Source of the DNA: an uncultured Nitrososphaerota archaeon
GTDB taxonomy: Archaea > Thermoproteota > Nitrososphaeria > Nitrososphaerales > Gagatemarchaeaceae
Assembly: GCA_963838925.1 (NCBI GenBank)
Contig: CAWISW010000003.1
Coordinates: 640,001-704,000, forward strand
Length of the DNA: 64,000 nt
Direction: 5' to 3'
Below the pieces are notes generated by a model. That model had not been told where the DNA came from and did no database searches. It saw only the letters and a program-made list of their open reading frames with translations. Both the position numbers and the translations under genes were made by a program. Below are positions 3,731-25,300 of the stretch, piece by piece. Positions within the stretch are counted from its first letter, which is position 1; each line of letters starts with the position of its first letter.

Positions 3731-4558
3731 CTAGGCAGGGCTCAGGACCGACCTGACGAATTCGTCGTACTCGCGGTCCCGCTCCCTGACCCAAGCTCTG
3801 AGGAGGCCGCCTGTGCCCGAAACGCCAGCCTCCTTGAGGAAGGCCGTCGCGACGTCCCAGTCGTGGATTGCGCCCAGGGCGTCCTGCCACTCCTGGAGCC
3901 TTGCGACCTCCGGCGAGCCCGCCTCTGCCGTAAGCTCGAGGGTGTAGCGCAGCTTCTTGGAGTCTATCCTCATCTTGTGCAGCTCCTTTAGCCTGGCCGG
4001 GTCCATTATCACCAAGGGCAGCAGCGCGTCGATGTCGCTCGAGAGCCTGCCCGTCACCCTCCCGTGCCTCTTCTGGAGCCACTTCTGCGTCACGCCCTTC
4101 GACCTCACCGCAGGCAGGGGCAGCCTGCGCGCCGAGGCGACCGCCTCCAGCATGTCCTCCGCGAGCTTGGGCCGCTTCCTGTCGATCTTCGCCAGGAGCT
4201 GGGCGCCCCCGGGGCCCTTGTGGCGCGACACCTTGCCTCTCGTCACGTCGAGGTCGCGGACCTTCGCGCTGCGCTTCATCAACTTCCTGTGGCTCTTGAG
4301 CAGCTCCCTCATCTCGGGGCTCTTGCGGATGCTCTTCGGCAGGACGTCCACCCAGGCTTCGTATCTCCTCATCGCCGTGCGCGCGTCATGGACGGCCTCC
4401 TCGTCGGGGTCCTTGGCGAGCAGATCCAGCTTTTGCGAGAGGGACTCGCCGGCCTTCTCGTACCCCTTCAGGAACGCGCCCTTCTCCATCACGGTCCCCT
4501 TGATGCGGGGCGCGAGCCTGGCCCTGGCGTGCGAGAGAACCGCCGACCTGCCGCTCAA
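3731..4558 (-). CDS. CHAD domain (polyphosphate-binding) protein
   Basis: AVHDARTAMRR, KVRDLDV, LHKMRIDSKKLRYTLE, QDALGAIHDWDV; start either TTG 4558 (TATA spacing) or ATG 4489. Confidence 0.88.
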   Translation of the reverse strand: MSGRSAVLSHARARLAPRIKGTVMEKGAFLKGYEKAGESLSQKLDLLAKDPDEEAVHDARTAMRRYEAWVDVLPKSIRKSPEMRELLKSHRKLMKRSAKVRDLDVTRGKVSRHKGPGGAQLLAKIDRKRPKLAEDMLEAVASARRLPLPAVRSKGVTQKWLQKRHGRVTGRLSSDIDALLPLVIMDPARLKELHKMRIDSKKLRYTLELTAEAGSPEVARLQEWQDALGAIHDWDVATAFLKEAGVSGTGGLLRAWVRERDREYDEFVRSVLSPA

Positions 4559-4639
4559 CGTCCGCAAAGGCGACGGCGGTGGTATAAGAAAGGGACAGCG
4601 GCTCACGTTTATCTTGCCCGGCGACGCCTCGGGGCCGCC

Positions 4640-5287
4640 TTGTCGGACGACGAGCTCGTGGATGTCTACGGCGACGACCTGAAGAAGGTCGGGGTCGCGA
4701 CGCGCTACGAGGCACACAGGAAGGGCCTCTGGCACTTCAACTTCCACTGCTGGGTGGTGACCCGCAGGCAGAGGGGTGCGCTGCTCTTCCAGGTGCGGAG
4801 CGAGTCGAAGCCCTCCTTCCCCGGCCTCCTCGACAGCACCGTGGGCGGGCACTACAGGGCGGGCGAGCGGTCGGCTGACGTCGTCCGCGAGATCGAGGAG
4901 GAGCTGGGGGTTAGGGCGGAGCTGAAGGAGCTCGTCCCCATCGGAAGGAGGGTCGACGTCGCCTCCTATGGCGGGGTCCCGAAGAGAGAAGTCGCGGAGG
5001 TCTTCCTCCTCGATAGCGAACGGCCGCTTGGGGAGTACAGCATCGACCCCGCAGAGGTCGCGGGGCTCGTGGAGGTCCCGATAGACGCCGGCCTGAGGCT
5101 CTTCTCGGGCCGCGTGAGGAGGATCTCGGCCAAAGGCATGATGACGGACCCGACTTCAGGGCGGTTGAAGGACGTCAGGCTCAACCTCGAGCTGAGGAGC
5201 TTCGTCCCCAAGATGGACTCTTACTACATGAGCTTGTTCATCGCGGCGAAGAGGCACTTGTCAGGCGAGAAGTACCTCTCGATATGA
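4640..5287 (+). CDS. NUDIX hydrolase (IPP isomerase type 1-like family)
   Basis: AHRKGLWH..FHCWV, FPGLLDSTVGGH, REIEEELG Nudix box; TTTAT box about 31 nt upstream of TTG. Confidence 0.88.
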   Translation: MSDDELVDVYGDDLKKVGVATRYEAHRKGLWHFNFHCWVVTRRQRGALLFQVRSESKPSFPGLLDSTVGGHYRAGERSADVVREIEEELGVRAELKELVPIGRRVDVASYGGVPKREVAEVFLLDSERPLGEYSIDPAEVAGLVEVPIDAGLRLFSGRVRRISAKGMMTDPTSGRLKDVRLNLELRSFVPKMDSYYMSLFIAAKRHLSGEKYLSI

Positions 5288-7103: not shown

Positions 7104-7385
7104 TCACAGAAGCGAAAGGCCGTAGAGGAGGAAGAAGACGACCAGGGTTCCGATCAGCAGGAATATGACGAAGCCTGCGACGGCCAGCTTCTTCCAGTCC
7201 GTCTTCCCATGATCCCTGCCCGGAGGACCGTAGGTGATCCCCCTCTCAGGGCTCTCGACCTGCGCGGTGGCCGAGGGGACGTAGAGGGACTGGGTCTCGT
7301 GCTTGTGGGTGGTGCCGCAGCGCCGGAGGTGCCTCTCGTAGTGGCTTTCGCTGATGAACTTCCCGCACTTTGGGCACGTCGGCAA
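7104..7385 (-). CDS. Zinc-finger (CxxC...H...C) protein with C-terminal TM anchor
   Basis: MPTCPKCGKFISESHYERHLRRC plus hydrophobic C-terminus. Confidence 0.75.
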   Translation of the reverse strand: MPTCPKCGKFISESHYERHLRRCGTTHKHETQSLYVPSATAQVESPERGITYGPPGRDHGKTDWKKLAVAGFVIFLLIGTLVVFFLLYGLSLL

Positions 7386-7521
7386 GGCGAACTCACGAGC
7401 GGGCGGAGGCGTATACGTGTTTCCAAGGCGCCAGCCGAAGTCAGGAGCTCGCCGGACCCGATCCCCTGCAGAAAGCGGTCGCTTGGAAAGGCGTAAAATC
7501 CATGGAGACCACCCGAGGGAC

Positions 7522-11230: not shown

Positions 11231-11363
11231 ATGCTTCTGGATTATGCTGGCGTGCGCCGCGTGACCTCAAACACTCAACACTAGCCCGAACGCTCTTGAA
11301 GCGGTGGTCCGCGCACATTCTCGGGTGCGCCTTATAGCCCGGCCTCGCCTCCCTCCCCGCGCA

Positions 11364-12323
11364 TTGAAGGGCGTGATGGCGTGGCTCACCGAGGAGGACC
11401 AGCCGGCCGTCAGGTACCTCGCGATGCGCGACCTGCAGGACGGCAGCGGGGGAGACCTCACGGAGGCCCGCGCGGCGATACCGACTAGGGGCTGGGTCAA
11501 GCAGATCCACGAGAAGCGCCTCCCCGGAGCGTACTGGGTCCACCGCGAGGACCTCTACAGGCCCAAGTACTTCTCGACCAACTGGATGCTCCTGGCGCTC
11601 TCAGACCTCGGGGTGACGAGGGAGGTTCCGTGGGTGGCCGAGTCGGCGGAGATGTGGAGGGACACTTTCGCCCGGCCCGACGGGGGCTTCGACACGCCCG
11701 GCTCGGACACGAGCGAGCTCTGCCTCGTTGGGAACACGGCCAGGGCCCTCGTGAAGTTCGGCTACGAGGACGACCCCAAGGTGAAGGGGGCCTTCGAATG
11801 GCTGGTCAAGAACCAGAAGCCCAACGGGGGCTGGGACTGCTTCGGGAGGGACGGCGTGATCGACGGGTGGGAGGGGATGAGCGCGTTCGCGGCCCTGCCC
11901 CGGGGGAAGTGGACGCGCGGGATGAAGGAGGCCGCGGACAGGGGCCTCGAGTTCTACCTGGAGCGCCGTCTCCTCAACGAGGGCGGCCGGTACGACCCAT
12001 GGCGCAGGCTCCACTTCCCCTACCACTACTACTACGACGTCCTGGTGGGGCTCGAGTTCGTCACAGCCCTCGGCAAAGGGGACGACCCGCGGGCGGAGCA
12101 AGCCCTCCGGCTGCTCAAGAGGAAGAGGCGGTCAGACGGCCGCTGGCTGATGGAATCGGTTCACCCTGACGTCCTCAACTCGGGGAGGCTGCCGAAGTAC
12201 TATCTGAAGCGCAAGAAGGACCTGAGGCCCTTCTCGCTTGAGCGAGCGGGCAAGCCGAGCAAGATGATAACGCTGAGGGCGCTGCGGGTCCTGAAGCGCG
12301 TGGGCGAGCCGGTTCCTAGCTGA
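11364..12323 (+). CDS. Alpha/alpha-toroid protein with prenyltransferase/squalene-cyclase-like repeats (uncharacterised family)
   Basis: WLVKNQKPNGGWDC, KRRSDGRW, FPYHYYYDVL, GKPSKMITLRALRVL; TTATA 32 nt upstream of TTG. Confidence 0.8.
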   Translation: MKGVMAWLTEEDQPAVRYLAMRDLQDGSGGDLTEARAAIPTRGWVKQIHEKRLPGAYWVHREDLYRPKYFSTNWMLLALSDLGVTREVPWVAESAEMWRDTFARPDGGFDTPGSDTSELCLVGNTARALVKFGYEDDPKVKGAFEWLVKNQKPNGGWDCFGRDGVIDGWEGMSAFAALPRGKWTRGMKEAADRGLEFYLERRLLNEGGRYDPWRRLHFPYHYYYDVLVGLEFVTALGKGDDPRAEQALRLLKRKRRSDGRWLMESVHPDVLNSGRLPKYYLKRKKDLRPFSLERAGKPSKMITLRALRVLKRVGEPVPS

Positions 12324-12337
12324 GGCCCCGCTTAGCC

Positions 12338-12514
12338 CTACGCGTGGCTCGTCCCCTCACAGTGGTCGAGAATCGTCAGTAGGTTTGCCAGGATCGCCAG
12401 CTCGGACTCGACATCCTCTCTGGAGTGCTCGATTGCCTGCATGACGCGCCTTGTTACGGCAGGGACCAACCGGTCCGCCAGCTCGCAGACTCGAGCGTCG
12501 TCCTCAGCGGTCAT
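12338..12514 (-). CDS. Microprotein B1 (58 aa) of bicistronic cassette 1
   Basis: Manual translation MTAEDDARVCELADRLVPAVTRRVMQAIEHSREDVESELAILANLLTILDHCEGTSHA; ATGA overlap with A1; similar to B2/B3. Confidence 0.7.
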   Translation of the reverse strand: MTAEDDARVCELADRLVPAVTRRVMQAIEHSREDVESELAILANLLTILDHCEGTSHA

Positions 12515-12651
12515 CGTCTCCGCATTCTAGACACGTCAAGGGTTTCGTTCGCCCACTTCTCGAACGCCTTAGGGTCCTTTAGAAGCCGGTCGATGAAGCG
12601 CCTCGCGCTCTCCAAATCCTCTTCCGGCTGCGCCCGCCTTGCCTTGACCAT
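12511..12651 (-). CDS. Microprotein A1 (46 aa) of bicistronic cassette 1
   Basis: MVKARRAQPEEDLESARRFIDRLLKDPKAFEKWANETLDVSRMRRR; TTATTA box 30 nt upstream; similar to A2/A3. Confidence 0.72.
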   Translation of the reverse strand: MVKARRAQPEEDLESARRFIDRLLKDPKAFEKWANETLDVSRMRRR

Positions 12652-12793
12652 GTCCTGCTAAGATGGTAGGGTGGCTAATAAGCGTCGACGAGGACTGTGG
12701 TCGCGGCGAGCTCATCTTTCCAGGCAGGACATCGTTCAGGCAGACCGTGGATGCTTATTAGGCTCCGGCGATTGCAATGCCGACGGCCTAGAG

Positions 12794-12949
12794 GTGCAGT
12801 CCCTGGACAAGCCGCTGACCAAGAAGGAGCTCCAGAACTTGGACAAGCTTCTCCACGATGACGCGGCGTTCGAAAGGATGGTCGAGCGGGCCGTCAGGGG
12901 TAGAATGCAATCGGGACGAAACGCAAGAAAGTCTGCCCGAGAATCTTGA
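12794..12949 (+). CDS. Microprotein A2 (~51 aa) of bicistronic cassette 2
   Basis: MQSLDKPLTKKELQNLDKLLHDDAAFERMVERAVRGRM...; GCTTATTAG box upstream, the same 9-mer as cassette 1. Confidence 0.65.
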   Translation: MQSLDKPLTKKELQNLDKLLHDDAAFERMVERAVRGRMQSGRNARKSARES

Positions 12950-13082
12950 CAGGCTTGAGAGAGTCCTTCGAAGGCGGGTCATCCGCGCGCCCGTGCGAGA
13001 TCCCGAGCGGCTGTTTGACGAGCTCGACGACCTCAACTTGGTCCTTGAATTGAAGGACAGAATCAAGAGCAACTTACCTTGA
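12933..13082 (+). CDS. Microprotein B2 (~49 aa) of bicistronic cassette 2 (start uncertain: CTG 12933 or ATG 12858)
   Basis: PENLDRLERVLRRRVIRAPVRDPERLFDELDDLNLVLELKDRIKSNLP; overlaps the end of A2; similar to B1/B3. Confidence 0.6.
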   Translation: MPENLDRLERVLRRRVIRAPVRDPERLFDELDDLNLVLELKDRIKSNLP

Positions 13083-13138
13083 ACGTTCTAGGGGATCCCA
13101 CTCGGGCAAGCTCCCGACTTCGAGCAGTCTTTGGAGAG

Positions 13139-13208
13139 GCCGAGCAAGATGATTACCCTGAGGGCGTTGCGAGTCCTGAAGCACCTCTGCGAGCCGATGC
13201 TAGATTGA
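13139..13208 (+). repeat. Displaced copy of the 3' end of the 11364-12323 gene
   Basis: PSKMITLRALRVLKHLCEPMLD* vs PSKMITLRALRVLKRVGEPVPS*; first 43 nt 39/43 identical, stop at the same position. Confidence 0.88.
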
Positions 13209-13269
13209 GGTTGGGAGGCCCCCTTCCCTCATGCAGGCGCTCTGTCAAGGATCACTTTTCTTTGAAATA

Positions 13270-13470
13270 GCGTCGACACGGTAACAATCACTTCTTGGGG
13301 ACGAGACCCCACCCGCCTCCGGCTCCGGCGACTCGACGCCCCCTGCTCAGTCCGACGACAATTCCGACACGACGAGCCCTCCGCCGTCGAATGGCGGCTC
13401 GAGCCCGCCGAGCAGCGACTCGACCTCGGCGACCACCTCGCCCCGCCTATCCATTTCCCCAGTTCCTTAG
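13270..13470 (+). pseudogene. Fragment of a Ser/Pro/Asp-rich secreted protein gene
   Basis: Start-less frame DETPPASGSGDSTPPAQSDDNSDTTSPPPSNGGSSPPSSDSTSATTS...*. Confidence 0.4.
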
Positions 13471-13550
13471 ATTGGAACTGTAGCGGCCGGTGGGCGCTTT
13501 TTGGAGAGGCGACCTTATATCGAAGACAGAGTATGGAAAACCGAACTTCA

Positions 13551-13685
13551 GTGCCAGACCAGACTCCCGAGTCTGACGACGAAGCCATCCGCAGGATCGA
13601 CGAGCTGCTGAAGGACCCCAAGAGACTGAGAGAGGCCATCGAGTCTCGCATCGACAGGGTGGTCAAGAATTGGCCGAAGCATTGA
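13551..13685 (+). CDS. Microprotein A3 (44 aa; 50 aa from ATG 13533) of bicistronic cassette 3
   Basis: MPDQTPESDDEAIRRIDELLKDPKRLREAIESRIDRVVKNWPKH; CTTATAT box upstream; shares IDxLLKDPK with A1. Confidence 0.72.
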   Translation: MPDQTPESDDEAIRRIDELLKDPKRLREAIESRIDRVVKNWPKH

Positions 13686-13867
13686 ACGACGACATCCAGC
13701 GTCTCTGCCGGCTCCTAATCGACCACAAGAAAGTGCTCGCCCACAGAGCCCTCATAGCTTGGGAGCGAAGCCCCGAGACTTTTGGTGAAGAGATTATCGC
13801 CCTCAACAGCATCGATGAGACCTTGCGCAACAACCCGCTTCTCAGACCGGAGTCGAACAACCCGTGA
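13682..13867 (+). CDS. Microprotein B3 (~61-65 aa) of bicistronic cassette 3
   Basis: NDDIQRLCRLLIDHKKVLAHRALIAWERSPETFGEEIIALNSIDETLRNNP...; TTGA overlap with the A3 stop (alternative TTG at 13670). Confidence 0.7.
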   Translation: MNDDIQRLCRLLIDHKKVLAHRALIAWERSPETFGEEIIALNSIDETLRNNPLLRPESNNP

Positions 13868-13907: not shown

Positions 13908-13980
13908 TTGGAGCTCCCCGACGACGAGCTGGTGGATGTCTACGACGACGCCCTCCTCCAAGGCACGCGGTCGTTATGAG
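13908..13980 (+). pseudogene. Truncated 5' end of a NUDIX paralog
   Basis: 13920-13954 is 32/35 identical to 4646-4680 (DDELVDVY); preceded by GTTTA box and TTG, then decays. Confidence 0.75.
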
Positions 13981-14287: not shown

Positions 14288-15085
14288 TCAAGTGGGCTTG
14301 AAGAGGCTCTTTGGGCAGACCGAGCAGTACTCGCAGGCCTTGCACTTGCCCACGCTCGTGCTCGACGTCGCCTCCCTCTCGCCCAGCCAGTACCCCCGCT
14401 TCTCCATCACGCTCGCCTCCGCCGCGGCCCTGTCGTGGGAGAGGAGGTGCACCTTCATCGCGTTCCGGTACTTGGCCTCGAGCTCGGCCAGCTTCCCCGA
14501 CTCCAGGTGGGTCGAGACCCTCTCCATCCAGAGCCCGCGCTCCTCCTCCGTGAGCTCCCCCGCCCTCAGCCTCACCAGGGCGAGCCTCAGGCGGGAGCAG
14601 TCGAACCCCATCAGCTCCAGGAGGAGGCCGTAGATCCGGACCTGGTTCATCTGGTCGGGCCAAAGGGAGGTCGGGTCGCCCCTCGTGGTCTTCAGCTCGA
14701 CGAGCCAGAGCGGCCTCCCCTCAGACCACACGATGTGGTCGGGCTCGCCGACTATCCGAAGGCCGCCGACGGTCGCCCAGACCCTCAGCACCGCGTAGCT
14801 CGGCTCCTTCCTGCTCACGAGCTCGGCGAACTGCCTCTCCGTGATGGGCTCCTGCGGGATGAGCTCGTCGTGCAGGTCCGTCCCCGCGTCCTTCGCCTCG
14901 GTGGGGACCTCCCCGAACGCGAACTCGTTCTCGACCTTGTACTCGCAGTAGAACTGGCCGGCTATCGTGGAGACCGCGACGAAGCTCGCGTCGTGGCGGA
15001 AGTTCTTCTCGCCCGATAGCATGAATTCCTTTTCGCGTCTCCACAAGGAATCCCAAAATGCAGCCCGTCGAGCGGCGTCAGTCAA
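14288..15085 (-). CDS. Solo Cas4/Exo5-like PD-(D/E)XK nuclease with 4Fe-4S ligands
   Basis: QFYCEYK + C-terminal CKACEYCSVC, GTDLH, GEPDHI...VELKT, QVRIYG; start may be ATG 15022. Confidence 0.85.
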   Translation of the reverse strand: MTDAARRAAFWDSLWRREKEFMLSGEKNFRHDASFVAVSTIAGQFYCEYKVENEFAFGEVPTEAKDAGTDLHDELIPQEPITERQFAELVSRKEPSYAVLRVWATVGGLRIVGEPDHIVWSEGRPLWLVELKTTRGDPTSLWPDQMNQVRIYGLLLELMGFDCSRLRLALVRLRAGELTEEERGLWMERVSTHLESGKLAELEAKYRNAMKVHLLSHDRAAAEASVMEKRGYWLGEREATSSTSVGKCKACEYCSVCPKSLFKPT

Positions 15086-15203
15086 TCTTCTTCTTTAAGG
15101 ATAGAGTTGCGTCAACCGTCCCCTAATACAGATATCTTACTAGCAGGGTTGAGGAGGATTGCTACCGCCGCGGCGGCCCTCGCGCGGTCTGCAGAATTAG
15201 ACA

Positions 15204-15716
15204 TCAGACCCCCAGCACGGCCTGGAGGATGCCTGCAACCGAGGTCGAAGCGACCAGCGAGATGACAAGTTGGTTGGTCTGTGGGTCGACGATCACGTAC
15301 CCAGAAAGTTTCAGCGACGAAAACGCCCCTGTGAAGCTTGGGGACTTTATGTTCACTCCGGTAAGGTTGAGCGTCATGTTCAGGTCGGTGCTCCCCTGGG
15401 CGGCCGGGTTCATGGTTATCTGAATGCTGCCCGAGGTCGCGTTGAGCTTCGTCGAGCCGTCGGGACTGCTGTAGTTGAAGTTCTGCAAAGTGAGTCCGAT
15501 GTTCCCCGTCGTGTTTGTAGCGACGGCCGCGAAAACGGGATTGGTCATCAGTCCCGCAGGAATCGCGGTCCGCTCGTTGATGTGGTCGACGGGGACCTGC
15601 CAAGTGAAGCCCAGGAATATCAGCAGTATCGCGACGACGGCGACCGCCAAGCCGACAGTCTTGCGCCGAGTGAGATGCAGACCACGCGGGTTCGATGGCG
15701 CCGCAGTTGTTGACAA
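15204..15716 (-). CDS. Secreted/membrane-anchored hypothetical protein
   Basis: RRKTVGLAVAVVAILLIFLGF anchor, beta-rich N/T/S body. Confidence 0.75.
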   Translation of the reverse strand: MSTTAAPSNPRGLHLTRRKTVGLAVAVVAILLIFLGFTWQVPVDHINERTAIPAGLMTNPVFAAVATNTTGNIGLTLQNFNYSSPDGSTKLNATSGSIQITMNPAAQGSTDLNMTLNLTGVNIKSPSFTGAFSSLKLSGYVIVDPQTNQLVISLVASTSVAGILQAVLGV

Positions 15717-15832
15717 GATGGCCGCTCTCGCAAAAAGAGACCTTCCCTATTGAAGATTTCCATCCATTAGCACGGAGACCCAGGAGGAGGGGACGCGGCG
15801 TCTTGACTTGGCCTTCGGGTGACCGTCGTCTC

Positions 15833-16663
15833 TCAGGCCGCGGCCTGAGGCTTGACCGATGATGACGCCGCAGAGATTAGCGCAGGGAACGCCTTCGCCA
15901 CGGCGGCGATACCCAGTGACAACACTCCGGCAGCCGACGCGGCTGCAGAAGTCGACGTGCCGGGATAAGACGCTGCAATCGACCCTGATGCGAAGGCTAG
16001 GACGACCGCAATCGCGCCTAGAGCGCCCAGAAGCAGATCTTCAGTTGTCCGGGAGTTCTGAGAGGAAAGCCCTGCGTCAGCTGGACTTTTCTTCACCTTG
16101 TCCAACATCGCGCTTACCTTCGCGGTCAAGGACAAATCCGCCAGAGCTTTCACCACGAAGGCAGACCCCGTAAAGATGAGAAACCACTCAACGTCGTTGC
16201 CTACTACCGCTGTGGAGGGAGTAGACTTCCCGAGGAAGACGGTGAGAAGGGTGGGTATGATTCCCGCCAAGGTCAAGCCGAGGAGGGACAAGTCCCCCAG
16301 AAGCTCGTACGTGTCGATCTTCGGCGTTTGGTCACCCGGCTTGCCCTTTCGTACGAGGCTCGGATACTTTTCCTCGAGTTTGTCAATGGGGCCTCTGACT
16401 CTGTAGTGCACCGTGGCTATCAGAGACGGGATGGCCTTGCCAAGAGCCGCAACCACAAGGGCTCCCTCACCAAGATACACAGCCGTCGGAGTGGCGGCAG
16501 TAAGAAACGAACTGAAGCTCCCGGTCAGGAGCGAGCTCATCGTACCGACGAACCCTCCCACCGCCAGGAAACCGTCCTCACATGAGGTTAGGAACGCAAC
16601 TCTGTTGTCGGTGGATTCCGACCTCTTGCCAGTATGCTCCTTCGTCTCGAGAGCGGAAGCCAT
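15833..16663 (-). CDS. Membrane protein with three internal 2-TM repeats
   Basis: Units start EDGFL/GDLSL/EDLLL and end LGKAIPSL/VVKALADL/VAKAFPAL. Confidence 0.7.
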   Translation of the reverse strand: MASALETKEHTGKRSESTDNRVAFLTSCEDGFLAVGGFVGTMSSLLTGSFSSFLTAATPTAVYLGEGALVVAALGKAIPSLIATVHYRVRGPIDKLEEKYPSLVRKGKPGDQTPKIDTYELLGDLSLLGLTLAGIIPTLLTVFLGKSTPSTAVVGNDVEWFLIFTGSAFVVKALADLSLTAKVSAMLDKVKKSPADAGLSSQNSRTTEDLLLGALGAIAVVLAFASGSIAASYPGTSTSAAASAAGVLSLGIAAVAKAFPALISAASSSVKPQAAA

Positions 16664-16822
16664 CTGCTCACGGATTTAGGTGGCGGAACGAATGTAAGGT
16701 TTTCGAGTTTGGGGCAGCGACGGCCGGGACGCAGAGAGGCAATCCTTCCTCTACAATACCTAGATTGGAGATTCTGGTTCCATAAATATTCGGATAATCA
16801 AGAAGATTCAATTTAGTGACTC

Positions 16823-18832
16823 GTGTTGACAGCTTCTGCTCATCCCACCTCTGCATTTCTGGGACTCCGCCTAAAGCCAATCCTAATCGAGCTTGAGAAG
16901 GAGATCCAAAACCTCGAAGAGAAGACGTCTCCCTACAAGACATACGCAGCATATATTCAGCGAAAGGACAGAGCGGAATGTCTGAATGAAGTCAAGTCAC
17001 TTTTGAGAAGGATTCACGGTTTGCGCTCTCGGACATTCTTTGCAACTTGGAGGAATCGCACGGTGCTTCACTCTCTGCAGTCTAGGACATACGCTCTCAA
17101 GAATTTCCTCGAAGGTTATTGTTCAGAGTATGCGAGCGCCGAGGTCAATCGGAGGAAGGCGTTCTTCGACGAAGCTAGATTGGACGAAGAACAAAAAACC
17201 GCTGTAGTGAAGGACGAGTCCCACCATCTGGTCATTGCGGCGGCAGGTTCAGGCAAGACCCGAACTCTAACAGCGAGGATTGCCCTTCTGATTGAACGAG
17301 GAGTACCGCAAGAAAGAATCCTTGCTCTCACATACACCAACGCGGCTGTGGCCGAAATGACGTCCAGACTCAACTCCCAATACGGCATCAAGGCTAACGT
17401 GAACACGTTTCACTCCTTTTGTCATGACTTAGCCAAGGAATCACAGGACTTCAGAAGCGGGGTAGCGGGAGCAAAAGAGCACCAGTTCATTCGTCAAGCC
17501 GCTGAAAGGCTAGCGTCCAATAACAAAGATTTCGCGCTGAAGATGCTCAACTTTGCCGAGGAGTTCAAAAGAGCCGAGGAGAAGAAACAGCAAGAATTTC
17601 CGACCGCAGAAGAGTACTACAAGTACCTACGCCATCAGGAATACCAGACACTGAACCTAGTGCCTGTGAAGTCGATAGCTGAATGCGAGATAGGTAATTT
17701 TCTCTTCTTGCACGGTGTGCGGTTCGAGTACGAGGCTTCTGCGAAGTGGGCCGACAGAAGTCCTGCGTTCCGAGACTACCAACCCGATTTCTTTCTGCCC
17801 GACTACGGTCTCTATCTGGAGCATTGGGCCAGCGATAGAAAGGGGAGAGTTCCGGATTGGTTCTCGGACGGTGGCTCGGGAGACCCCTCGGAGCGATACC
17901 GGGAGGGGATGGAGTGGAAGAGAGACCAGTTCAAGAAGCAGAATCGACGACTGGTTGAGACCTTCCACTATCAAGTCGCAGAAGGTGATCTTCTACGCAA
18001 CCTTAGGATGCAGCTGGAGGCGAATGGTGTCATGCTCGCCGACCTCCCTATGGACGAGGTCATCAGACGAATCGACGGGGAAATTCGGCGCGATCCGCTT
18101 CATGAGATTGTCTTGTCCTTCATCAAGCGGGGGAAGACCAACGGGCTAGTGCCGTCCGACATTCAAGCCCGGCTTGAATCCGGCAACTGGACGAAGAAGC
18201 AGCGGGATTTCGCTTCCCTGATGGTGCTCATCTGGATAGAGTACGAGAACCTCCTCAGGGAGAGCAACATGCTTGATTTCAATGACATGGTGACTCTCGC
18301 CCTGCAGGTGGCTCGGAAGAAGGGGTCTGATCTGGCGAAGCAATATCCTCACATCCTTGTCGACGAGTTCCAAGACATCACCGACCCTCAACTCGAACTG
18401 ATACGATGCATCTCATCTGGGTCCGGGAACGGCGGAACCTTGTTCTGCGTGGGGGACCACAGACAAAACATCTTTTCTTTCGCCGGGTCAAACGTCAAGA
18501 ACATCCTCGAGTTCGATGAAAGCTTCCCAGACTCGGAGAGGACGCTGTTATCCACCAACTATCGATGCCCAAGCAACGTGGTCAGAGCTTCGAACCAGCT
18601 GATGGTCAGCCACCCAGGTGAAACGCCGGCAGTCCCAATGTCAACCGAGGTTCGTCCTATCCGTCTGATTCAGAAGAGCGACAATCTTCAGTACGACAAA
18701 TGGGAGGCGCAATCGGCAAGAACGCTGCTGAACGAGCTTCTCGAGACGAAGAAAGACGATGAGGACATCTTGGTCCTGGCTCGATACAATTTCCGCTATC
18801 AAGACTTAGATGTCTTTTGGCGAAGACGCTAA
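16823..18832 (+). CDS. UvrD/HelD (helicase IV-like) SF1 helicase with embedded PD-(D/E)XK-like domain, N-terminal part
   Basis: AAAGSGKT, ILALTYTN, LVDEFQD, VGDHRQNIFSFAGS, LSTNYRC; insert YQPDFFLPDYGLYLEHW. Confidence 0.88.
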   Translation: MLTASAHPTSAFLGLRLKPILIELEKEIQNLEEKTSPYKTYAAYIQRKDRAECLNEVKSLLRRIHGLRSRTFFATWRNRTVLHSLQSRTYALKNFLEGYCSEYASAEVNRRKAFFDEARLDEEQKTAVVKDESHHLVIAAAGSGKTRTLTARIALLIERGVPQERILALTYTNAAVAEMTSRLNSQYGIKANVNTFHSFCHDLAKESQDFRSGVAGAKEHQFIRQAAERLASNNKDFALKMLNFAEEFKRAEEKKQQEFPTAEEYYKYLRHQEYQTLNLVPVKSIAECEIGNFLFLHGVRFEYEASAKWADRSPAFRDYQPDFFLPDYGLYLEHWASDRKGRVPDWFSDGGSGDPSERYREGMEWKRDQFKKQNRRLVETFHYQVAEGDLLRNLRMQLEANGVMLADLPMDEVIRRIDGEIRRDPLHEIVLSFIKRGKTNGLVPSDIQARLESGNWTKKQRDFASLMVLIWIEYENLLRESNMLDFNDMVTLALQVARKKGSDLAKQYPHILVDEFQDITDPQLELIRCISSGSGNGGTLFCVGDHRQNIFSFAGSNVKNILEFDESFPDSERTLLSTNYRCPSNVVRASNQLMVSHPGETPAVPMSTEVRPIRLIQKSDNLQYDKWEAQSARTLLNELLETKKDDEDILVLARYNFRYQDLDVFWRRR

Positions 18833-19316
18833 GCGCGGATTGGCGTTCGCGTCCATTCACGGAGCGAAGGGGATGGAGGCAGACTACGTTGTGCTTCTGG
18901 GGTGTGTTGGAGGCTTGTTCGGATTTCCCTCGGCAATCTTGGATGACGAACTCCTGGACATCGTGAGCAATCACAAGCAGGACACGAACGAGAAGCTGGA
19001 GGAGGAGAGGAGGCTGTTCTACGTCGCGCTGACTAGGTGTAGGAAGCAACTGTATATCTTCACCTCAGAGGTAGACAGGTCGCCGTTTCTTGCCGAGATT
19101 GACGAGCTTCGACACCGCGACGACGGCTATTGCATCAGGTCAGGTCATAGAATCCCGTTCAACAAAAGGGATCCGCTGTGCCCTAGCTGCCGTCGCACGT
19201 GGGATCGGTACAAGAGGAAGAACTATCCCGAGAAATGGTGTCACTCTTGCGGGGAGCCCGCTGAGACTTCTTTTGCCAGACCGTTGTGCATAAGATGTTG
19301 GCGGAAATCCAGATAG
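18810..19316 (+). CDS. C-terminal part of the UvrD helicase (other frame) plus Cys-rich zinc-finger tail
   Basis: SIHGAKGMEAD, EEERRLFYVALTR; PLCPSC...WCHSCG...PLCIRC; implies a frameshift or split near 18805-18830. Confidence 0.85.
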   Translation: MSFGEDAKRGLAFASIHGAKGMEADYVVLLGCVGGLFGFPSAILDDELLDIVSNHKQDTNEKLEEERRLFYVALTRCRKQLYIFTSEVDRSPFLAEIDELRHRDDGYCIRSGHRIPFNKRDPLCPSCRRTWDRYKRKNYPEKWCHSCGEPAETSFARPLCIRCWRKSR

Positions 19317-19365
19317 AACCGAAGTCGGTGACAAATAAATATCGGTGGATCCCTAAAAATGGTCA

Positions 19366-19812
19366 TTGGCCCATTTCGAGGGAATCACGGATGAGAAGGG
19401 AAGGGTCAGGTTCGACGACATGCCTCCTGGCATTTACACCGTGACGGTCGAGGCCGAAGGCTCCGAGCCTGTCGAAAGGAAGATCCAAGTGAAGTCTCCT
19501 GAGGACGACGTATCACTCAACATAAACCTGAAGCCAATAACCACTGGTTTCTTGGCTCTTCAGAACAAACGGCTCAGGGCGCTAATTCTGTCCTCCACGG
19601 ACATGCTAAGAGTGGGCGCGTACGTCAGCGAGAGCGAACGGCTGATCAAACTTTCGTCGCCCGGTCTCAGGAAGTACGCCACAAGTCAATTCGAAAAGAC
19701 GAGTGAGTCGGCCAGAAGGAGAATCGAAGAGCTGCGAAAGCTCGAGTCTTCCGTCTCGGTCGGAATTGGCCCAACTGGACTGAAGTTCTCTAAGAGAGTG
19801 AAGAAGCGGTAG
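19366..19812 (+). CDS. Carboxypeptidase-regulatory-like beta-sandwich domain protein
   Basis: TDEKGRVRFDDMPPGIYTVTVEAEG; AATAAATA box upstream. Confidence 0.7.
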   Translation: MAHFEGITDEKGRVRFDDMPPGIYTVTVEAEGSEPVERKIQVKSPEDDVSLNINLKPITTGFLALQNKRLRALILSSTDMLRVGAYVSESERLIKLSSPGLRKYATSQFEKTSESARRRIEELRKLESSVSVGIGPTGLKFSKRVKKR

Positions 19813-19876
19813 GGCATTCGGTCGCATCGAGCCGAGGCGGAAGCTGGTTGTCTTCTCAGAGGCCTGACGGAAGGTT

Positions 19877-21670
19877 CTAACGTTTGGTCTTGGGCGCAGG
19901 TTGAGCTGGGCCTGCCAGCTCTGATAGCTCTATTTTTGCCAGTATCTCTGCGGCCTTCCGAGCCAAGGCGGGGTTCTTGCTGCCATGGTGCCGGCTCAAT
20001 GCCCTTTGGAATCTTTTCACCTCATTACGGTGGAGCTTTCCTCTAAGTGCCGTATACTGATACCCTTCCTTGATGCTGGCCCAAGTACCCAGCTGAGATT
20101 CCAGCCTCGTCAGCCACTCAAACAGATCAGCGGCGGCTTCAAGCCTCGATTCTAGCACGATGGACTTCAATTGGCCGACCCGTTTGATTGCCCCCGCGTT
20201 CTGCTGCAACACTTCCGCCGCAGATGCCCATTTCAGCGTTGGCGTACTGAACCCAATGGTGAGGGTCCCCTGTGCACCCCCTTCTTCAATCTTGACCGAC
20301 AGCCGGGCGAGTGTGGCTTCAAGTCTCTCCTTCCATATCTTGCATCGCGAGGAATCTGCATAGGCCGAGTAGGTTGTCAGGGCACGGAGGCAAATCCCAA
20401 TCGCATCTGACGGTTTTTCGCTGAGCATGGAGTCTAGGTTGATTTGCTGGTCTATTTCTTCGACCTTGTCGATGTGGCTGCAGTCGAGGAAGTATTGCAG
20501 TTCGCTAATCCAGTAGTCTGGGACCTCTTGGCCCTCCATTTGCCTGTCTAGCCGATTTCTCTCCACTTGATAACCGAGTCTGACATATGGGAAGAATAGG
20601 GTCTTCAGATAGGGCAGGACTTTCTCGAATTCGTAGGGCAGGCAGATGGTCCGTCCGGCAAGCTCGGAATCTACCGGAAGCGAGAGGCCTAGTTGGTTGG
20701 GGCTCTCGTCAAGCACAACTCTCCGCTTGTCGTAATATCTCAGGCGAGTTTGGTAGACGTCGCGGCAATCGGGGCCCACCAGAATAAGAATGAACTGTCG
20801 ATTGCGGCGAGCCGCGTCCCAGAACACGCGTCTTATGTGGTCATCCCTGAACGAGTATCCTGCAACGGTAACGTTGCCGACGGACTCGAGCCGATTCTTG
20901 AGCTCCATCAAGAGTTCCTGCAGGGGTTCTTCATATTCCCACTTTCTCATGGGGTAAAGGATCAGGGTCTCTGCAGTCTCTCCGGTGATTAGCTCAGTTC
21001 TGGCGTTGAGGCTCGTGACCGGAATCTTCACGTAACTGCCCGTGTCGGTTCGATACCACATTATCGACCCATGGAGCTTGTAGAGTCTCACGTCCACATC
21101 GGTCCGCTCGAAGTTCTTTCTGTTCCACTCGAAGTCGAACCCGTCCACGTACCTCTTCTTGTTGACATTGCAGAGCTGCTCGACCGCGATGTCGTAGTTG
21201 ACGGAAAAGACATCTAACGGTTTGCCTCCTTTCTTGAAGCCGAAAAGAGGCTGCAGATAGGCGACTTTGCCAGGCGCTACCTCGCCTTTCTTCCGGATAA
21301 AGTTCCTCAGTTTCCCGCTCAGAATGCCCACTTCGACGGGGTCTAATGACTTTGATTCGGGGAGCCTGAGGAACCTAGCGAGGACGTCTTGGTCCAAGTT
21401 CGCTAGTCGCTCCATCGTCTCCAGGAGGAGCTCAACGTCCGCCCCGCCACTGATGCCTTCTTGCATGCCTCTCCAATCGCGGAGTACTCGAAGAATGTCC
21501 TCAAGGACACGCGTCTCGTGTTCATCGCTGAGAGTCGACTTGAACGCCTCTACGAAACCGAAGGTGGTTGGCACGCCTGCGGCAACCGATGCGCCCGCAC
21601 CCAAGAAGAAGATCTCGTCGTCTGTGTTTTGGCCGGACAAATGACCACTGCTTCTGCCCAAGGTTTCCAT
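19877..21670 (-). CDS. SIR2-like (defence-type) NADase domain protein
   Basis: FFLGAGASVAAGVPT, FSVNYD, YKLHGS, GYSFRDDHI; helical C-terminal half. Confidence 0.9.
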   Translation of the reverse strand: METLGRSSGHLSGQNTDDEIFFLGAGASVAAGVPTTFGFVEAFKSTLSDEHETRVLEDILRVLRDWRGMQEGISGGADVELLLETMERLANLDQDVLARFLRLPESKSLDPVEVGILSGKLRNFIRKKGEVAPGKVAYLQPLFGFKKGGKPLDVFSVNYDIAVEQLCNVNKKRYVDGFDFEWNRKNFERTDVDVRLYKLHGSIMWYRTDTGSYVKIPVTSLNARTELITGETAETLILYPMRKWEYEEPLQELLMELKNRLESVGNVTVAGYSFRDDHIRRVFWDAARRNRQFILILVGPDCRDVYQTRLRYYDKRRVVLDESPNQLGLSLPVDSELAGRTICLPYEFEKVLPYLKTLFFPYVRLGYQVERNRLDRQMEGQEVPDYWISELQYFLDCSHIDKVEEIDQQINLDSMLSEKPSDAIGICLRALTTYSAYADSSRCKIWKERLEATLARLSVKIEEGGAQGTLTIGFSTPTLKWASAAEVLQQNAGAIKRVGQLKSIVLESRLEAAADLFEWLTRLESQLGTWASIKEGYQYTALRGKLHRNEVKRFQRALSRHHGSKNPALARKAAEILAKIELSELAGPAQPAPKTKR

Positions 21671-21743
21671 CCTTATTATAGCAAATGCGCTAGGCGCTAT
21701 GGCGTCTAATTGCGCGAGCCGTGTGATTGCAGCGAGGCCGACA

Positions 21744-21920
21744 CTATGCAGTCCTGGATTCGTCTGTCCTCCTGCCTAGCTCACTGAGCACCTTCGAGAG
21801 GTCTAGGTCTTTGGACTTTGACGACTCGATGGTCGAGATGAGTTCATCCATGGGGGATTCGCCTTCAGAATCTTCCACAGGGCTAGCGTTCAACCCCAGT
21901 ATATGCGCCATATGGCCCAT
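21744..21920 (-). CDS. Possible small acidic protein or gene remnant
   Basis: MGHMAHILGLNASPVEDSEGESPMDELISTIESSK...; plausible composition only. Confidence 0.35.
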   Translation of the reverse strand: MGHMAHILGLNASPVEDSEGESPMDELISTIESSKSKDLDLSKVLSELGRRTDESRTA

Positions 21921-22047
21921 GGCCTCAGCTCGAGGTGCTTGACAAGCGGCAGATGGAACTTCCTTGTGGTCCCGGATTGCAGGTCTGCATAGAGCGGAAC
22001 GGGGTTCGTCAGGGAAACCACGCACTCGCCGAGGAGTTCCATCGGGC

Positions 22048-22341
22048 ATGCCTCTAGGCGGCCGGGTCTATGCCGCTCTTCACCAGATATCTGATCAAAA
22101 GAAACTCAAGGCCCACGTCATCTTCATAGTTGACAAGAATGGGAAGCTTGAAGGCGAAATAGCCGGGCCGGTAACGATTGGTGCTTGGTATTTGCCAAGA
22201 ATGAGGAAGAAGGAAGCTGCTCAGATAGTTCAGGATTACCTCAAAGAAGAATATCCCCACAAGAAGATTCAAGTTGAAGACATCAAGCTGTATTCTAGCA
22301 AGAAGGCAAATGAGCTATTGTTCAAGCTCGAGAACAAGTGA
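22048..22341 (+). CDS. Small basic hypothetical protein
   Basis: KLKAHVIFIVDKNGKLEGEI...VQDYLKEEYPHKKIQVEDIKL; start uncertain. Confidence 0.55.
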   Translation: MPLGGRVYAALHQISDQKKLKAHVIFIVDKNGKLEGEIAGPVTIGAWYLPRMRKKEAAQIVQDYLKEEYPHKKIQVEDIKLYSSKKANELLFKLENK

Positions 22342-22383
22342 CCTCATGGGGGCATAAATTGTCGTTACGAAGATGTTATCAGC

Positions 22384-25300
22384 GTGACGTTTCCATTGCT
22401 GGAGGGCAGCCTATTGAATCCGGTGGAGAAGTACTTCCAAGATCTCCGAGATATTAGGTCAACCGGCGCAGCAGTGCCAGAAACATCGTACTACGGTGCT
22501 CTTGAATCTCTTCTAAACGAGATTGGACGGACAATGAACCCGAAAGTAAGGTGCGTCATTAACATTGCGAACAGAGGAGTCGGGATTCCCGATGGGGGGC
22601 TGTTTACTGAAAGTCAGTTTCAACGACTAGACTTGGGGAAACCGATGGGTGGACAGCTTCCTGAAAGAGGAGTTGTCGAAGTGAAACCGACTGGCGACGA
22701 TGCTTGGGTGACGAGTTCCGGAGAGCAGGTCACCAGATATTGGGGTGAATATGGCCTCGTTTTGGTTACCAACTACAGGGACTTCGTTTTGGTTGGTAGA
22801 GACTCCCAAGGCAGAGCAGAGCGACTCGAAACTTACCGCTTGGCGGACACCGAATCGGATTTCTGGGGAATGGTCGCACATCCAAAGAGAGCGGACAAAC
22901 AGCAAGGTGAGCGCTTAACCGAATACCTGAAACGAGTCCTATTGCATGCCGCTCCTATCACTTCTCCCGAGGATGTAGCATGGTTCCTTGCCTCCTATGC
23001 CAGAGATTCGAGGGCGAGAATCGAAGGGGCAGAACTACCATCACTCAACACAGTGCGTCAGGCTTTGGAGGATGCGCTTGGGCTCAAGTTTGAAGGCGAA
23101 AAGGGAGAACACTTCTTCAGGTCAACTTTGATACAGACTTTGTTCTACGGTGTCTTTTCTGCCTGGGTCTTATGGAGCAAAGACCTTTCACCCAATGACA
23201 ACTCATCGAGGTTTGATTGGCGAATAGCGGCGTGGTCTCTGCGAATACCAATGATAAGGGTCCTCTTCGAGCAGATTGCAACACCGCAGCTTGGCTCCTT
23301 GGGTTTGGTGGAGCCTTTGGATTGGGCTTCTGCGGTTCTTAACAGGGTAGATCGGCCGAGGTTCTTCAGCACTTTTGATCAAGGCTATGCCGTCCAATAC
23401 TTTTACGAGCCATTTCTAGAGCAGTTGGATCCAGAACTCAGAAAAACATTGGGAGTGTGGTACACTCCTCCAGAGATTGTAAAGTACATGGTTGCAAGGG
23501 TAGATACAGTTCTCCGACAAGAGCTCGACATTCCCGATGGCTTGGCGGACCCGAGAGTGGTGGTCCTTGATCCATGTTGCGGGACAGGCACTTATCTGAT
23601 TGAGGCAATACGACTAATCGCGCGTACTATCAAAGAGAAGCATGGAGACGCTCTAGCGCCTCAGGAAATCAAGAAAGCCGCAATGGAAAGAATCTATGGT
23701 TTTGAGATTCTTCCGGCGCCATTCATTGTAGCGCATTTGCAAATGGATCTCCTCCTTCAGCAGCTTCAAGCACCGTTCCTGCAAGAAAAGTCTGAGCGCG
23801 CGTCAATCTACCTGACGAATGCGTTGACGGGTTGGACGTCCCAAGAGGAAGCCTCGCACCAAGCGTTCTTCCCCGAACTTGAGAAGGAGAGATCCGCCTC
23901 AGAAGGCGTAAAGCGCGCGAGACCTATTCTGGTCGTGCTAGGAAACCCGCCATACGATGCGTTCGCTGGGGTGAGTTCCGCTGAGGAAGACCACGTAGTT
24001 GATTTGTACAAGGAAGGTCTGAACGAACCAGTAAGCAGAGGTGGATGGGGAATCAAGAAGTTCAACCTCGATGACTTGTACATCCGTTTTTTCAGAATCG
24101 CAGAGCGGCGCATCGTTGACGGAGAGCCGGGCTACGGGATAGTCTGCTTCATCTCAAATTTCTCCTTCCTCAGAAGAGACTCTTATGTCGTTATGCGTCA
24201 AAGATTTGCGAAGGAGTTCGACTCAGTTTGGCTTGACTGCATGAATGGTGACAGCAGAGAGACTGGGAAACTTACTCCGGACGGCGGCTCTGACCCATCG
24301 GTTTTCTCAACGGATTATCATCCTGTCGGTATTCGTGTGGGTACAGTCATCTCCTTGTTCGCTCGGAAACCTCAAAGGAGCGAGAAGATGTCCATTCGGT
24401 ATCGAGACTTTTGGGGAGTCGCGAAGAGAGCAGACTTGCTGAAGAGTCTTCAGGTTGCAGACTTTGATAAGCAGTACGAGCAGATTCAGCCCTCGAAACA
24501 GAATCGTTACTTGTTCCACCCGACGGCCGAAGGGGGAAGATACGAACACTGGCCCAAGCTCACAGACTTGAGCAGAGAAGCACCGATTAACGGGCTAATG
24601 GAGAAACGAGGAGGAGGGCTTATAGACATTGATCGGACCAAGATTGAGGAAAGAATGCAGAGATACTTCGACAAGAATGTCGATTGGGACACATTCGTGT
24701 TAGGGAACTCCAAGCTCACCGAAAATGCAGCCGGATTCACAGCAAAAGAGGTCCGTCAGAAGCTGCTCAATTCCGAGCAATATCAGGCCGAACGAGTGGT
24801 GCCATACGCTCTCCGACCGTATGATACAAGATGGTGCTACTATAGCAGCGTGAATCCCTTGTGGAATAGGTCGAGACCCAAGCTTTGGGGCCAATATCGG
24901 AAAAAGAATGGATTTGTAATGTCACGTCCAACGGGGGTGGCTAGTCCTGAAGGGATTCCTTTCTTTTTTACGCGGCTACTTGGCGATAACGATTTCCTAC
25001 GAGGCCATGCCTACTACATCCCGATTAAGCTCTTTCAAGATGAGGGCGATGGCTCCACACTCTTTCCCAAGGCTCAATCTGGGCTGGATTGGGAGGCCAA
25101 TCTCTCGCCCAAGGCAATCAGCTACCTTATGGATTTGGGAATAGCAAGCCTCGAAGATGAAGACTCCGCAAGTCTTGTTTGGATGCACGTACTTGCGATT
25201 GGTTTCTCACCTAGTTACTTGCTAGAAAACGAAGACGGCATCCGTAGAGATTGGCCAAGAATTCCTATGCCTCAATCAAAGGAGCTACTTGCGTCCTCTG

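Follow-up and report, generated by a model that had tools for sequence, protein, structure and literature searches.

In toxin–antitoxin (TA) modules of type II, two co-directional small genes with an overlapping stop and start and a promoter of their own encode one basic and one acidic partner, one of them partly disordered, and such pairs occur in many diverged copies, patchy among close relatives, at variable sites near PIN, Fic/Doc and restriction genes. The nearest of them in spirit to the genes described here are the small all-helical Hha/TomB pairs and the short helical antitoxin PaaA2. Here we describe three diverged copies of a two-gene cassette in 64,000 nucleotides (nt) of DNA from an uncultured Nitrososphaerota archaeon of the Gagatemarchaeaceae (assembly GCA_963838925.1, contig CAWISW010000003.1, positions 640,001–704,000 of the forward strand; this whole stretch is hereafter the window). 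Each cassette comprises a gene for a small basic protein, A, followed by one for a small acidic protein, B, and the two almost certainly form a real, conserved and co-functioning gene pair.

The A/B cassette shares the type II traits listed above, with a promoter-like box in the place of the promoter. Its adjacent, co-directional genes overlap by 4, 92 and 16 nt in the three copies, an A-type open reading frame (ORF) lies at the start of about 57 of 59 B genes, and copies are distributed patchily in variable regions, with 0–12 per genome and B genes in 18 of 22 congeners. In contrast to type II systems, the cassettes show no homology to the toxin, antitoxin and defence families searched, including the toxin superfamilies PIN, RelE/ParE, MazF, Doc, HicA and HEPN; they have no recognised RHH, HTH, AbrB or Phd DNA-binding domain and no enzyme-like or membrane-active features, and A and B also occur fused in frame.

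Three other kinds of system invite comparison. The WXG100 proteins (EsxA/EsxB) of Gram-positive bacteria and mycobacteria are about 100 amino acids (aa) long, carry a W-x-G turn and depend on type VII secretion. Like A and B, they are small helical hairpins encoded in bicistronic pairs, of which a genome has many paralogous ones, each pair presumably joined in a four-helix heterodimer; unlike them, the A and B proteins are 43–74 aa long, turn at S-P-E (B) or D-P (A), belong to an archaeal host and give no Pfam match to WXG100. Rop (Rom) of ColE1 plasmids is a homodimer without an obligatory partner gene, and B, a helical hairpin with a floppy tail and about 55–65 aa in length, belongs to its class in size and topology but has no sequence match or significant fold match to it. 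Integron cassettes are likewise compact one- or two-gene units that accumulate side by side at a hotspot, but the A/B cassettes have a TATA-like box of their own, their paralogues have no common flanking recombination site, and no integrase was found in the 50 ORFs scanned, no dedicated attC search having been made.

Three A/B cassettes and their relatives

Between positions 12338 and 13867 the window holds three compact A+B bicistrons with overlapping frames, as an earlier note made from the sequence alone had proposed. All six genes are ORFs that match the profile of their own kind:

12338–12514, − strand: B1, 58 aa, acidic helical-hairpin family; B-profile E 1.8e-24
12511–12651, − strand: A1, 46 aa, basic two-helix family; A-profile E 1.9e-22
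12794–12949, + strand: A2, 51 aa, GTG start; A-profile E 3.6e-19
12858–13082, + strand: B2, 74 aa; B-profile E 9.3e-20
13533–13685, + strand: A3, 50 aa, ATG at 13533; A-profile E 1.1e-24
13670–13867, + strand: B3, 65 aa, TTG start, overlapping A3 by 16 nt; B-profile E 4e-23

Cassettes 1 and 2 are divergently oriented. The TGA of A1 overlaps the ATG of B1 in an ATGA stop/start that is also kept in another locus (L096). An overlap of A stop and B start had been claimed for all three cassettes; it stands for cassettes 1 (4 nt) and 3 (16 nt), and gives way in cassette 2 to a 92-nt overlap with no neat stop/start, because the ATG at 12858 is the only start codon of B2. The resulting long N-terminus of B2 is kept in a 72-aa homologue (P0013). 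The B proteins had been put at about 49–65 aa, a range that holds B1 and B3; B2, at 74 aa, is longer than the roughly 49 aa allowed for it. The non-ATG starts of A2 and B3 have parallels too, in that homologues are called from the position equivalent to the GTG of A2 (P0201), and the TTG start and first residues of B3 are common to a paralogue at C2:5602–5784. A3 could instead start at an in-frame GTG (13551) and would then have 44 aa; its homologues have been called at either length, 50 or 44 aa. Called genes identical to A1, B1 (P0001) and B3 are present in the protein collection; none is listed for A2, B2 or A3. On the opposite strand, a 145-aa open frame (13229–13666, −) runs antisense to A3 and the DNA upstream of it; this is probably a spurious GC-rich ORF, and automatic gene calling might choose it over the real small genes.

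The comparison of the copies with shuffled controls that the earlier note had called for was made with pairwise Smith–Waterman scores, each against 1000 shuffles, and is decisive for A1–A3 (z 7.9, 0/1000). The remaining A pairs (A1–A2, z 3.5, 3/1000; A2–A3, z 2.3, 38/1000) and the B pairs (B1–B2, z 3.6, 9/1000; B2–B3, z 3.7, 7/1000; B1–B3, z 2.4, 31/1000) leave doubt at z 2.3–3.7. Seven of the nine A-versus-B comparisons gave z of 1.4 or less, and the other two, B2–A3 (2.9) and A3–B3 (2.5), are level with the weakest like-with-like pairs. By themselves, the pairwise scores prove A1–A3 only. The doubt is settled by profiles: those built from the three A and the three B proteins find further copies in the same 1.84-Mb genome (E 1e-9 to 8e-3 for A, 2e-11 to 9e-7 for B). 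Each further A match is followed directly, on its own strand, by a further B match, and the likeness of the cassettes is therefore beyond chance. The paralogous copies are:

C2:5602–5900, − strand: A+B pair, profile matches
C2:6153–6544, + strand: A+B pair, profile matches; divergent from the preceding pair, like cassettes 1 and 2
C3:393920–394236, − strand: A+B pair, profile matches
C1:252241–252515, − strand: A+B pair, profile matches
C3:384939–385097, + strand: B gene, B-profile match, whose upstream partner is a divergent A

Two further matches fall within long unrelated frames and were dropped as chance, one of the A profile (C3:396808, frame of 334 aa) and one of the B profile (C1:227253, frame of 222 aa). 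The likeness lies at the protein level, as had been claimed: no DNA-level similarity exists among the three cassettes, and among paralogous cassettes it ends at the coding sequence, with no common flanking DNA repeats. The A and B profiles are not detectably related to each other (hhalign probability 0.9%).

The protein at G000:C2:6153–6434 (L004 1882–2163), of a type termed A5, has 93 aa and a conserved N-terminal extension of about 40 residues that recurs in at least six metagenomic homologues (P0187, P0189, P0191, P0193, P0197 and P0203) and has no Pfam match. Between the same cassette (G000:C2:6261–6541) and its counterpart in genome G420 (L089, 8282–8553), A is 98% identical and the adjoining B 74%, which suggests a within-cassette recombination break or very uneven rates of change.

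Selection on the two frames can be read from homologous pairs with at least 55% amino-acid identity. By the Nei–Gojobori method, the proportion of non-synonymous differences (pN) is below that of synonymous differences (pS) in all 35 pairs (12 A, 23 B), which are not independent and include the overlap regions, and pN/pS is at most 0.48 in 33 of the 35, the two exceptions being little-diverged pairs. Both genes are thus under purifying selection, in agreement with the earlier view of an old, selected family. The sequencing runs that hold the stretch are four soil-metagenome DNA runs of one study, with no RNA run listed.

Promoter-like boxes lie upstream of each A gene:

12675–12683, − strand: TATA-like box GCTTATTAG, −32 to −24 of the A1 ATG
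12753–12761, + strand: TATA-like box GCTTATTAG, −41 to −33 of the A2 GTG
13494–13504 and 13513–13521, + strand: conserved AT-rich boxes GCGCTTTTTGG and CCTTATATC upstream of A3

Cassettes 1 and 2 do share one upstream motif, as had been noticed: GCTTATTAG stands 32 and 41 nt before the A1 and A2 starts. The same 9-mer is found exactly at −32 to −24 of an A1-type gene in L096, where the flanking DNA has diverged. The two boxes of A3, either of which may be its TATA box, recur upstream of A3-type genes in five loci (L078, L027, L032, L029 and L031). Across the family, TATA-like words occur 22–45 nt upstream of a candidate start in 26 of 44 A genes as against 0.9% of random genome positions, a comparison in which the word list was chosen after viewing the sequences and the random positions are a lenient control. 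The claim that every cassette has its own TATA box is in this way borne out as a promoter-like box in the sequence. Two inverted repeats between cassettes 1 and 2 (I2 and I3) were set aside: they are interleaved rather than nested, are no better than 14 other pairs in 2.5 kb, and amount to the two TATA-like boxes plus chance.

The two genes keep company almost without exception. In the other genomes, 22 of 28 B loci have an A-profile match overlapping the B start; in all DNA examined the figure is 43 of 59 unique B genes, and 13 further B genes have an overlapping upstream ORF of a divergent A type. Those 13 ORFs were picked by a motif already seen and are thus a selection; their profile matches the A profile with a probability of 96.1% (hhalign, E 3.3e-9). 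The remaining B genes comprise one whose partner is A-like by eye and two with nothing recognisable. Seen from the other gene, a B lies downstream of 41 of the 44 unique A genes. Because the reading frames overlap, A and B would be made from one transcript. In addition, natural in-frame A–B fusions of 93–109 aa are found in three kinds (P0042 with P0226; P0108; P0176 with P0227), two of which are each present in two assemblies.

Outside this genome, paired homologues exist, as the reading in the earlier note requires, nearly all in one archaeal family. The B profile finds 88 proteins (E ≤ 0.01) in a collection of 5.8 billion, eight being the copies of this very genome, and a search of 1.84 billion proteins gave 100 cluster representatives (E ≤ 1e-3); the A profile finds 46 in the larger collection, all small. 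B relatives have 27–119 aa save for one coiled-coil protein of 2072 aa, a match regarded as spurious. None of the A or B relatives has a Pfam domain, and the only name given to any is 'hypothetical protein'. Relatives with titled sources come from metagenome-assembled genomes (MAGs) labelled Thaumarchaeota or Nitrososphaerales archaeon, one being palsa_1368, which has been assigned to Gagatemarchaeaceae (Group I.1c) (PMC10640624). B genes were not found in 4 of the 22 congeners. Of 36 other genomes of this archaeal family, 26 carry them, as does 1 of 24 from other (sister) families of the order; an even sample of 400 genomes of the phylum gave one weak, stop-containing match. The compared genomes are close kin, and these counts are not independent. 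The gene family is almost wholly confined to one family of the Nitrososphaerales, and its carriers are soil MAGs of the Group I.1c/Gagatemarchaeaceae kind. By sequence, the three cassettes of the window are members of this lineage-restricted family of putatively autonomous two-gene operons.

Some copies depart from the intact arrangement. Stops lie inside 9 of 92 B matches across genomes; these are not counted as pseudogenes, and in the one inspected, on contig C1 of the same genome, a shorter B ends naturally at the stop. At L078 (G409:C3, 7150–7459) an intact A is followed by a B split over two frames (profile matches 7296–7382 and 7370–7459), likely a frameshifted, decaying copy, and at L080 (G409, 11664–11804) an orphan A2-type gene has no recognisable B downstream. 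No longer protein with an A domain was found, which is weak evidence. With B3 alone as query, no viral contig was found in IMG/VR and four MAG loci were found, and tblastn against phage and plasmid collections gave no match, a single query having limited reach. Word searches of the literature, which cannot find an unnamed family, brought up general papers on TA systems and small proteins and papers on the lineage, none of them about such a pair; for the absence of the family from print this is weak evidence.

Protein features and library searches

The A proteins have about 43–62 aa (median 48), a median isoelectric point of 9.9, a grand average of hydropathy of −1.23 and a tail rich in Arg and Lys. 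The B proteins have about 51–74 aa (median 56), with corresponding values of 5.3 and −0.29. Both are hydrophilic, and neither shows a hydrophobic segment or signal-like N-terminus. In the AlphaFold2 model of A3 (predicted local distance difference test score, pLDDT, 73.6), residues 1–14 are disordered and two helices (15–27 and 29–45) are separated by a break at the conserved D-P. B3 is modelled as a helical hairpin (helices 2–33 and 35–54; pLDDT 87.8, predicted template-modelling score 0.68) with the conserved S-P-E of B at the turn and the start of the second helix. In these models the best-conserved polar motifs, D-P and S-P-E, look like helix-capping boxes and not like catalytic sites, and no candidate catalytic residues are seen in A or B. 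A complex prediction for A3 and B3, each with its alignment, scored 0.01, below the mark, and counts neither for nor against a complex.

The statement that the proteins belong to no known family or fold withstood every library tried. Pfam gave no match at the curated cut-off, the best hits (E 0.0036–0.0062) coming from one or two members each and from unrelated families; PADLOC gave no match, and the best matches in PHROGs (E 0.06), NCBIfam (E 0.012) and, by sequence profile, the PDB (E 0.015–0.034) are likewise not significant. The PDB match of the A profile to the short N-terminal helix of FtsH (E 0.015) was rejected as a local helix-Pro-helix resemblance, not homology. Against PDB structures, none of the 133 Foldseek matches of the B3 model reaches E ≤ 0.001 and only generic hairpins are found, and the best look-alikes in the ESM Atlas (0.79 for B3, 0.80 for A3) fall within the range of shuffled sequences.

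Insertion site and neighbourhood

Cassettes 1 and 2 follow a 339-aa gene (11304–12323) with a weak match to a squalene-hopene cyclase domain, and together they occupy an 885-bp unit bracketed by a 58-nt direct repeat (family D1):

12254–12311, + strand: repeat copy 1, native 3′ end of the 339-aa gene
13139–13196, + strand: repeat copy 2, diverged duplicate of the gene end, 58 nt, 86% identical to copy 1

Copy 2 retains the frame and stop codon of the gene end (25-aa ORF, 13131–13208). Copy 1 is taken as the native end because the orthologous gene end in congener G417 is closer to it (91% identical) than to copy 2 (80%). G417, which has 87% DNA identity in the 339-aa gene, and a second congener, G415, each have a single gene end and no cassettes 1 and 2 there. 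The repeat-bounded unit looks like an integration or recombination scar, and no recombinase was found. Soil-metagenome contigs are identical across the junction of gene end and cassette 1, and no joint skipping the 885-bp unit was seen among them; at low coverage and perhaps from the source sample itself, they carry no weight.

The site also varies on its other side. The sole cassette of G417 at this site has 73% DNA identity to cassette 3, compared with 87–92% in the flanking genes. Relative to a 42-nt remnant (window 13914–13955) this cassette is on the opposite side, and it directly abuts EF-2, which in the window (26425–28617) stands about 12.5 kb further on. In G415 (L092, G415:C8, 7985–8365, −), a 126-aa Fic/DOC gene (Pfam E 9.5e-14) lies immediately downstream of the 339-aa ortholog, at the position of cassettes 1 and 2, and thus the same site hosts a classical TA-type toxin gene in another species. 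Cassette presence therefore differs among congeners at a site that also hosts a Fic/DOC gene, and the insertion hotspot suspected in the earlier note is real in this respect. The 42-nt remnant itself shares 91% identity with window 4646–4680, inside a NUDIX-domain ORF (4064–5287), and 90% with the beginning of a paralogous ORF which in G417 stands between the cassette and the 339-aa gene. A paralogue has probably been deleted here and has left this stretch behind.

A defence-type island (14288–25932) separates cassette 3 from EF-2 in the window:

14288–15085, − strand: PD-(D/E)XK/Cas4-like nuclease
16823–18832 and 18810–19316, + strand: UvrD-type helicase, apparently split in two ORFs
19877–21670, − strand: SIR2_2 protein
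22384–25932, + strand: Type ISP/MmeI-like restriction-methylase, 1182 aa

The nuclease gene is also present in G417 (91% identical), there on the opposite flank of the 339-aa gene. Where the UvrD-type gene begins (16500–17700), the G+C content is 0.47–0.52, compared with 0.60–0.69 around it, which is consistent with a foreign origin of that part of the island.

Copies cluster within genomes. Two B genes lie within 7 kb of each other in 10 of 22 multi-copy genomes, where 1.2 would be expected and the maximum in 2000 simulations was 5. Outside the window 40 neighbour ORFs were scanned, of which three encode PIN-domain proteins, and PIN genes lie within about 0.5–0.8 kb of cassettes in three loci; the other neighbours with an assigned family are ordinary (EF-2, endonuclease V, TiaS, PUA, NAC, TrmO, flavodoxin, cupredoxin and radical SAM). 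Neither these 40 nor the 10 window ORFs scanned include an integrase, transposase or recombinase, and Rfam and tRNA scans of the region found nothing.

Possible functions of the pair

The reading we prefer, a toxin–antitoxin-like function argued by analogy, has somewhat less than an even chance of being right; 'TA-like' here stands for a behavioural analogy, at moderate odds, and not for a classification. A and B would bind each other, probably as a small helical bundle, because they are nearly obligate neighbours, share overlapping frames and occur as natural single-chain fusions. They would act by binding and not by catalysis, since the conserved polar motifs lie at helix starts and no candidate catalytic residues are seen. 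The module would persist as a selfish TA-like element of addiction or defence, on the grounds that it has 0–12 copies per genome, clusters, occupies variable sites near PIN, Fic/Doc and restriction or defence genes, differs by insertion and deletion between congeners and diverges faster than the flanking genes. If it is a TA pair, we lean weakly to the guess that A is the antitoxin-like partner, because it is upstream, partly disordered and faster diverging, with a basic tail that could bind the promoter, and that B is the effector, because it is better conserved and stably folded. In its fullest form, which we put forward tentatively, this would be a new minimal, non-enzymatic, all-helical two-protein addiction or defence module of about 110 codons in total in Group I.1c-type soil Thaumarchaeota, in which A and B form a small helical bundle and the balance between the two controls growth or the replication of an invader, and which spreads as a promoter-bearing unit at gene ends, duplicating the 3′ end of its target.

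Several points weigh against the TA-like reading. No toxin, antitoxin or defence family matches A or B, and in A no DNA-binding domain is recognised. With 45–65 aa and a hydrophilic character, the two fall below the size of known type II toxins and do not resemble the membrane-active toxins of type I. The in-frame fusions are awkward for a labile-antitoxin mechanism and fit an obligate complex at least as well as the classical unstable antitoxin. Housekeeping genes (EF-2, endonuclease V, TiaS, NAC, TrmO, flavodoxin) make up most of the immediate neighbours, and the argument from neighbourhood is weak because PIN makes up only 3 of 40 neighbour ORFs and its baseline frequency was not measured. 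The choice of the TATA-like words after the sequences had been viewed and the close kinship of the genomes compared count on the same side, and tiny size together with fusion fits an obligate non-toxic heterodimer about as well.

That alternative, which we regard as possible and well short of probable, holds that A and B are halves of a small non-toxic heterodimer, a helical bundle whose basic tail binds DNA or RNA as a regulator or a nucleoid- or ribosome-associated factor, multiplied in this lineage without addiction. It accounts for the single-chain fusions, the strict pairing in overlapping frames, the structural character of the D-P and S-P-E motifs, the basic tail of A and the many copies that stand singly between housekeeping genes. 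It sits less easily with a copy number that ranges from 0 to 12 among congeners and with the four in which no copy was found, with clustering, and with presence that varies among close relatives in cassettes diverging faster than their flanks. Traits of this kind are seldom seen in a cellular regulator; they are what selfish or conflict genes typically show.

The cassettes might instead be passengers of a small integrative element moved in trans, with the 885-bp unit as an integration product and A and B serving the element in maintenance, regulation or anti-defence. This account, unlikely in our estimate and not exclusive of a TA-like function, draws on the 86% direct repeat around cassettes 1 and 2, whose outer copy keeps frame and stop, on the absence of the segment in G417 and G415, on the second divergent cassette pair at C2:5602–6544, and on clustering. 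Yet the repeat-bounded arrangement was seen in a single case and paralogues have no common flanking repeats; the ORFs scanned include no integrase, transposase or recombinase family, no tRNA lies nearby, and B3, one protein of limited reach as a query, has no relative in the IMG/VR, phage and plasmid collections.

It is very improbable that A and B are an effector and its immunity protein, the effector being small and either secreted or contact-dependent, as in bacteriocin or WXG100 systems. Bicistronic small helical proteins with many diverging paralogues per genome would suit such a pair, but A and B lack any hydrophobic segment and any signal-like N-terminus, the neighbourhoods scanned show no recurring secretion genes, and Pfam gives no match to WXG100 or bacteriocin families. 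Finally, the idea that these very short ORFs are chance open frames of GC-rich intergenic DNA, which does abound in spurious ORFs such as the antisense frame at 13229–13666, is refuted, as far as sequence can tell, by purifying selection in both frames, more than 100 diverged homologues that keep length and order, a conserved promoter box and a confidently predicted B fold.

Whatever its function, the A/B cassette represents a new gene-pair family on the theme of the two-gene selfish module. The non-ammonia-oxidising soil Thaumarchaeota are uncultured, and to our knowledge no mobile or conflict genes of theirs have been described. The family is among the most multiplied gene pairs of these genomes, and it is invisible to every family library tried and partly missed by automatic gene calling. 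In the one lineage paper searched, the words toxin, defence and defense are absent (PMC10640624). Small as it is, the pair lends itself to direct synthesis and co-expression and to assays of its structure and of any toxicity. If it serves addiction or defence, it would add a TA-like system made of two helical proteins of fewer than 70 residues, with no enzyme, and would provide a marker for the variable islands of these archaea; if the pair is instead an obligate heterodimer that binds nucleic acids, it would be a compact, rapidly evolving example of a helical bundle that occurs both split and fused.

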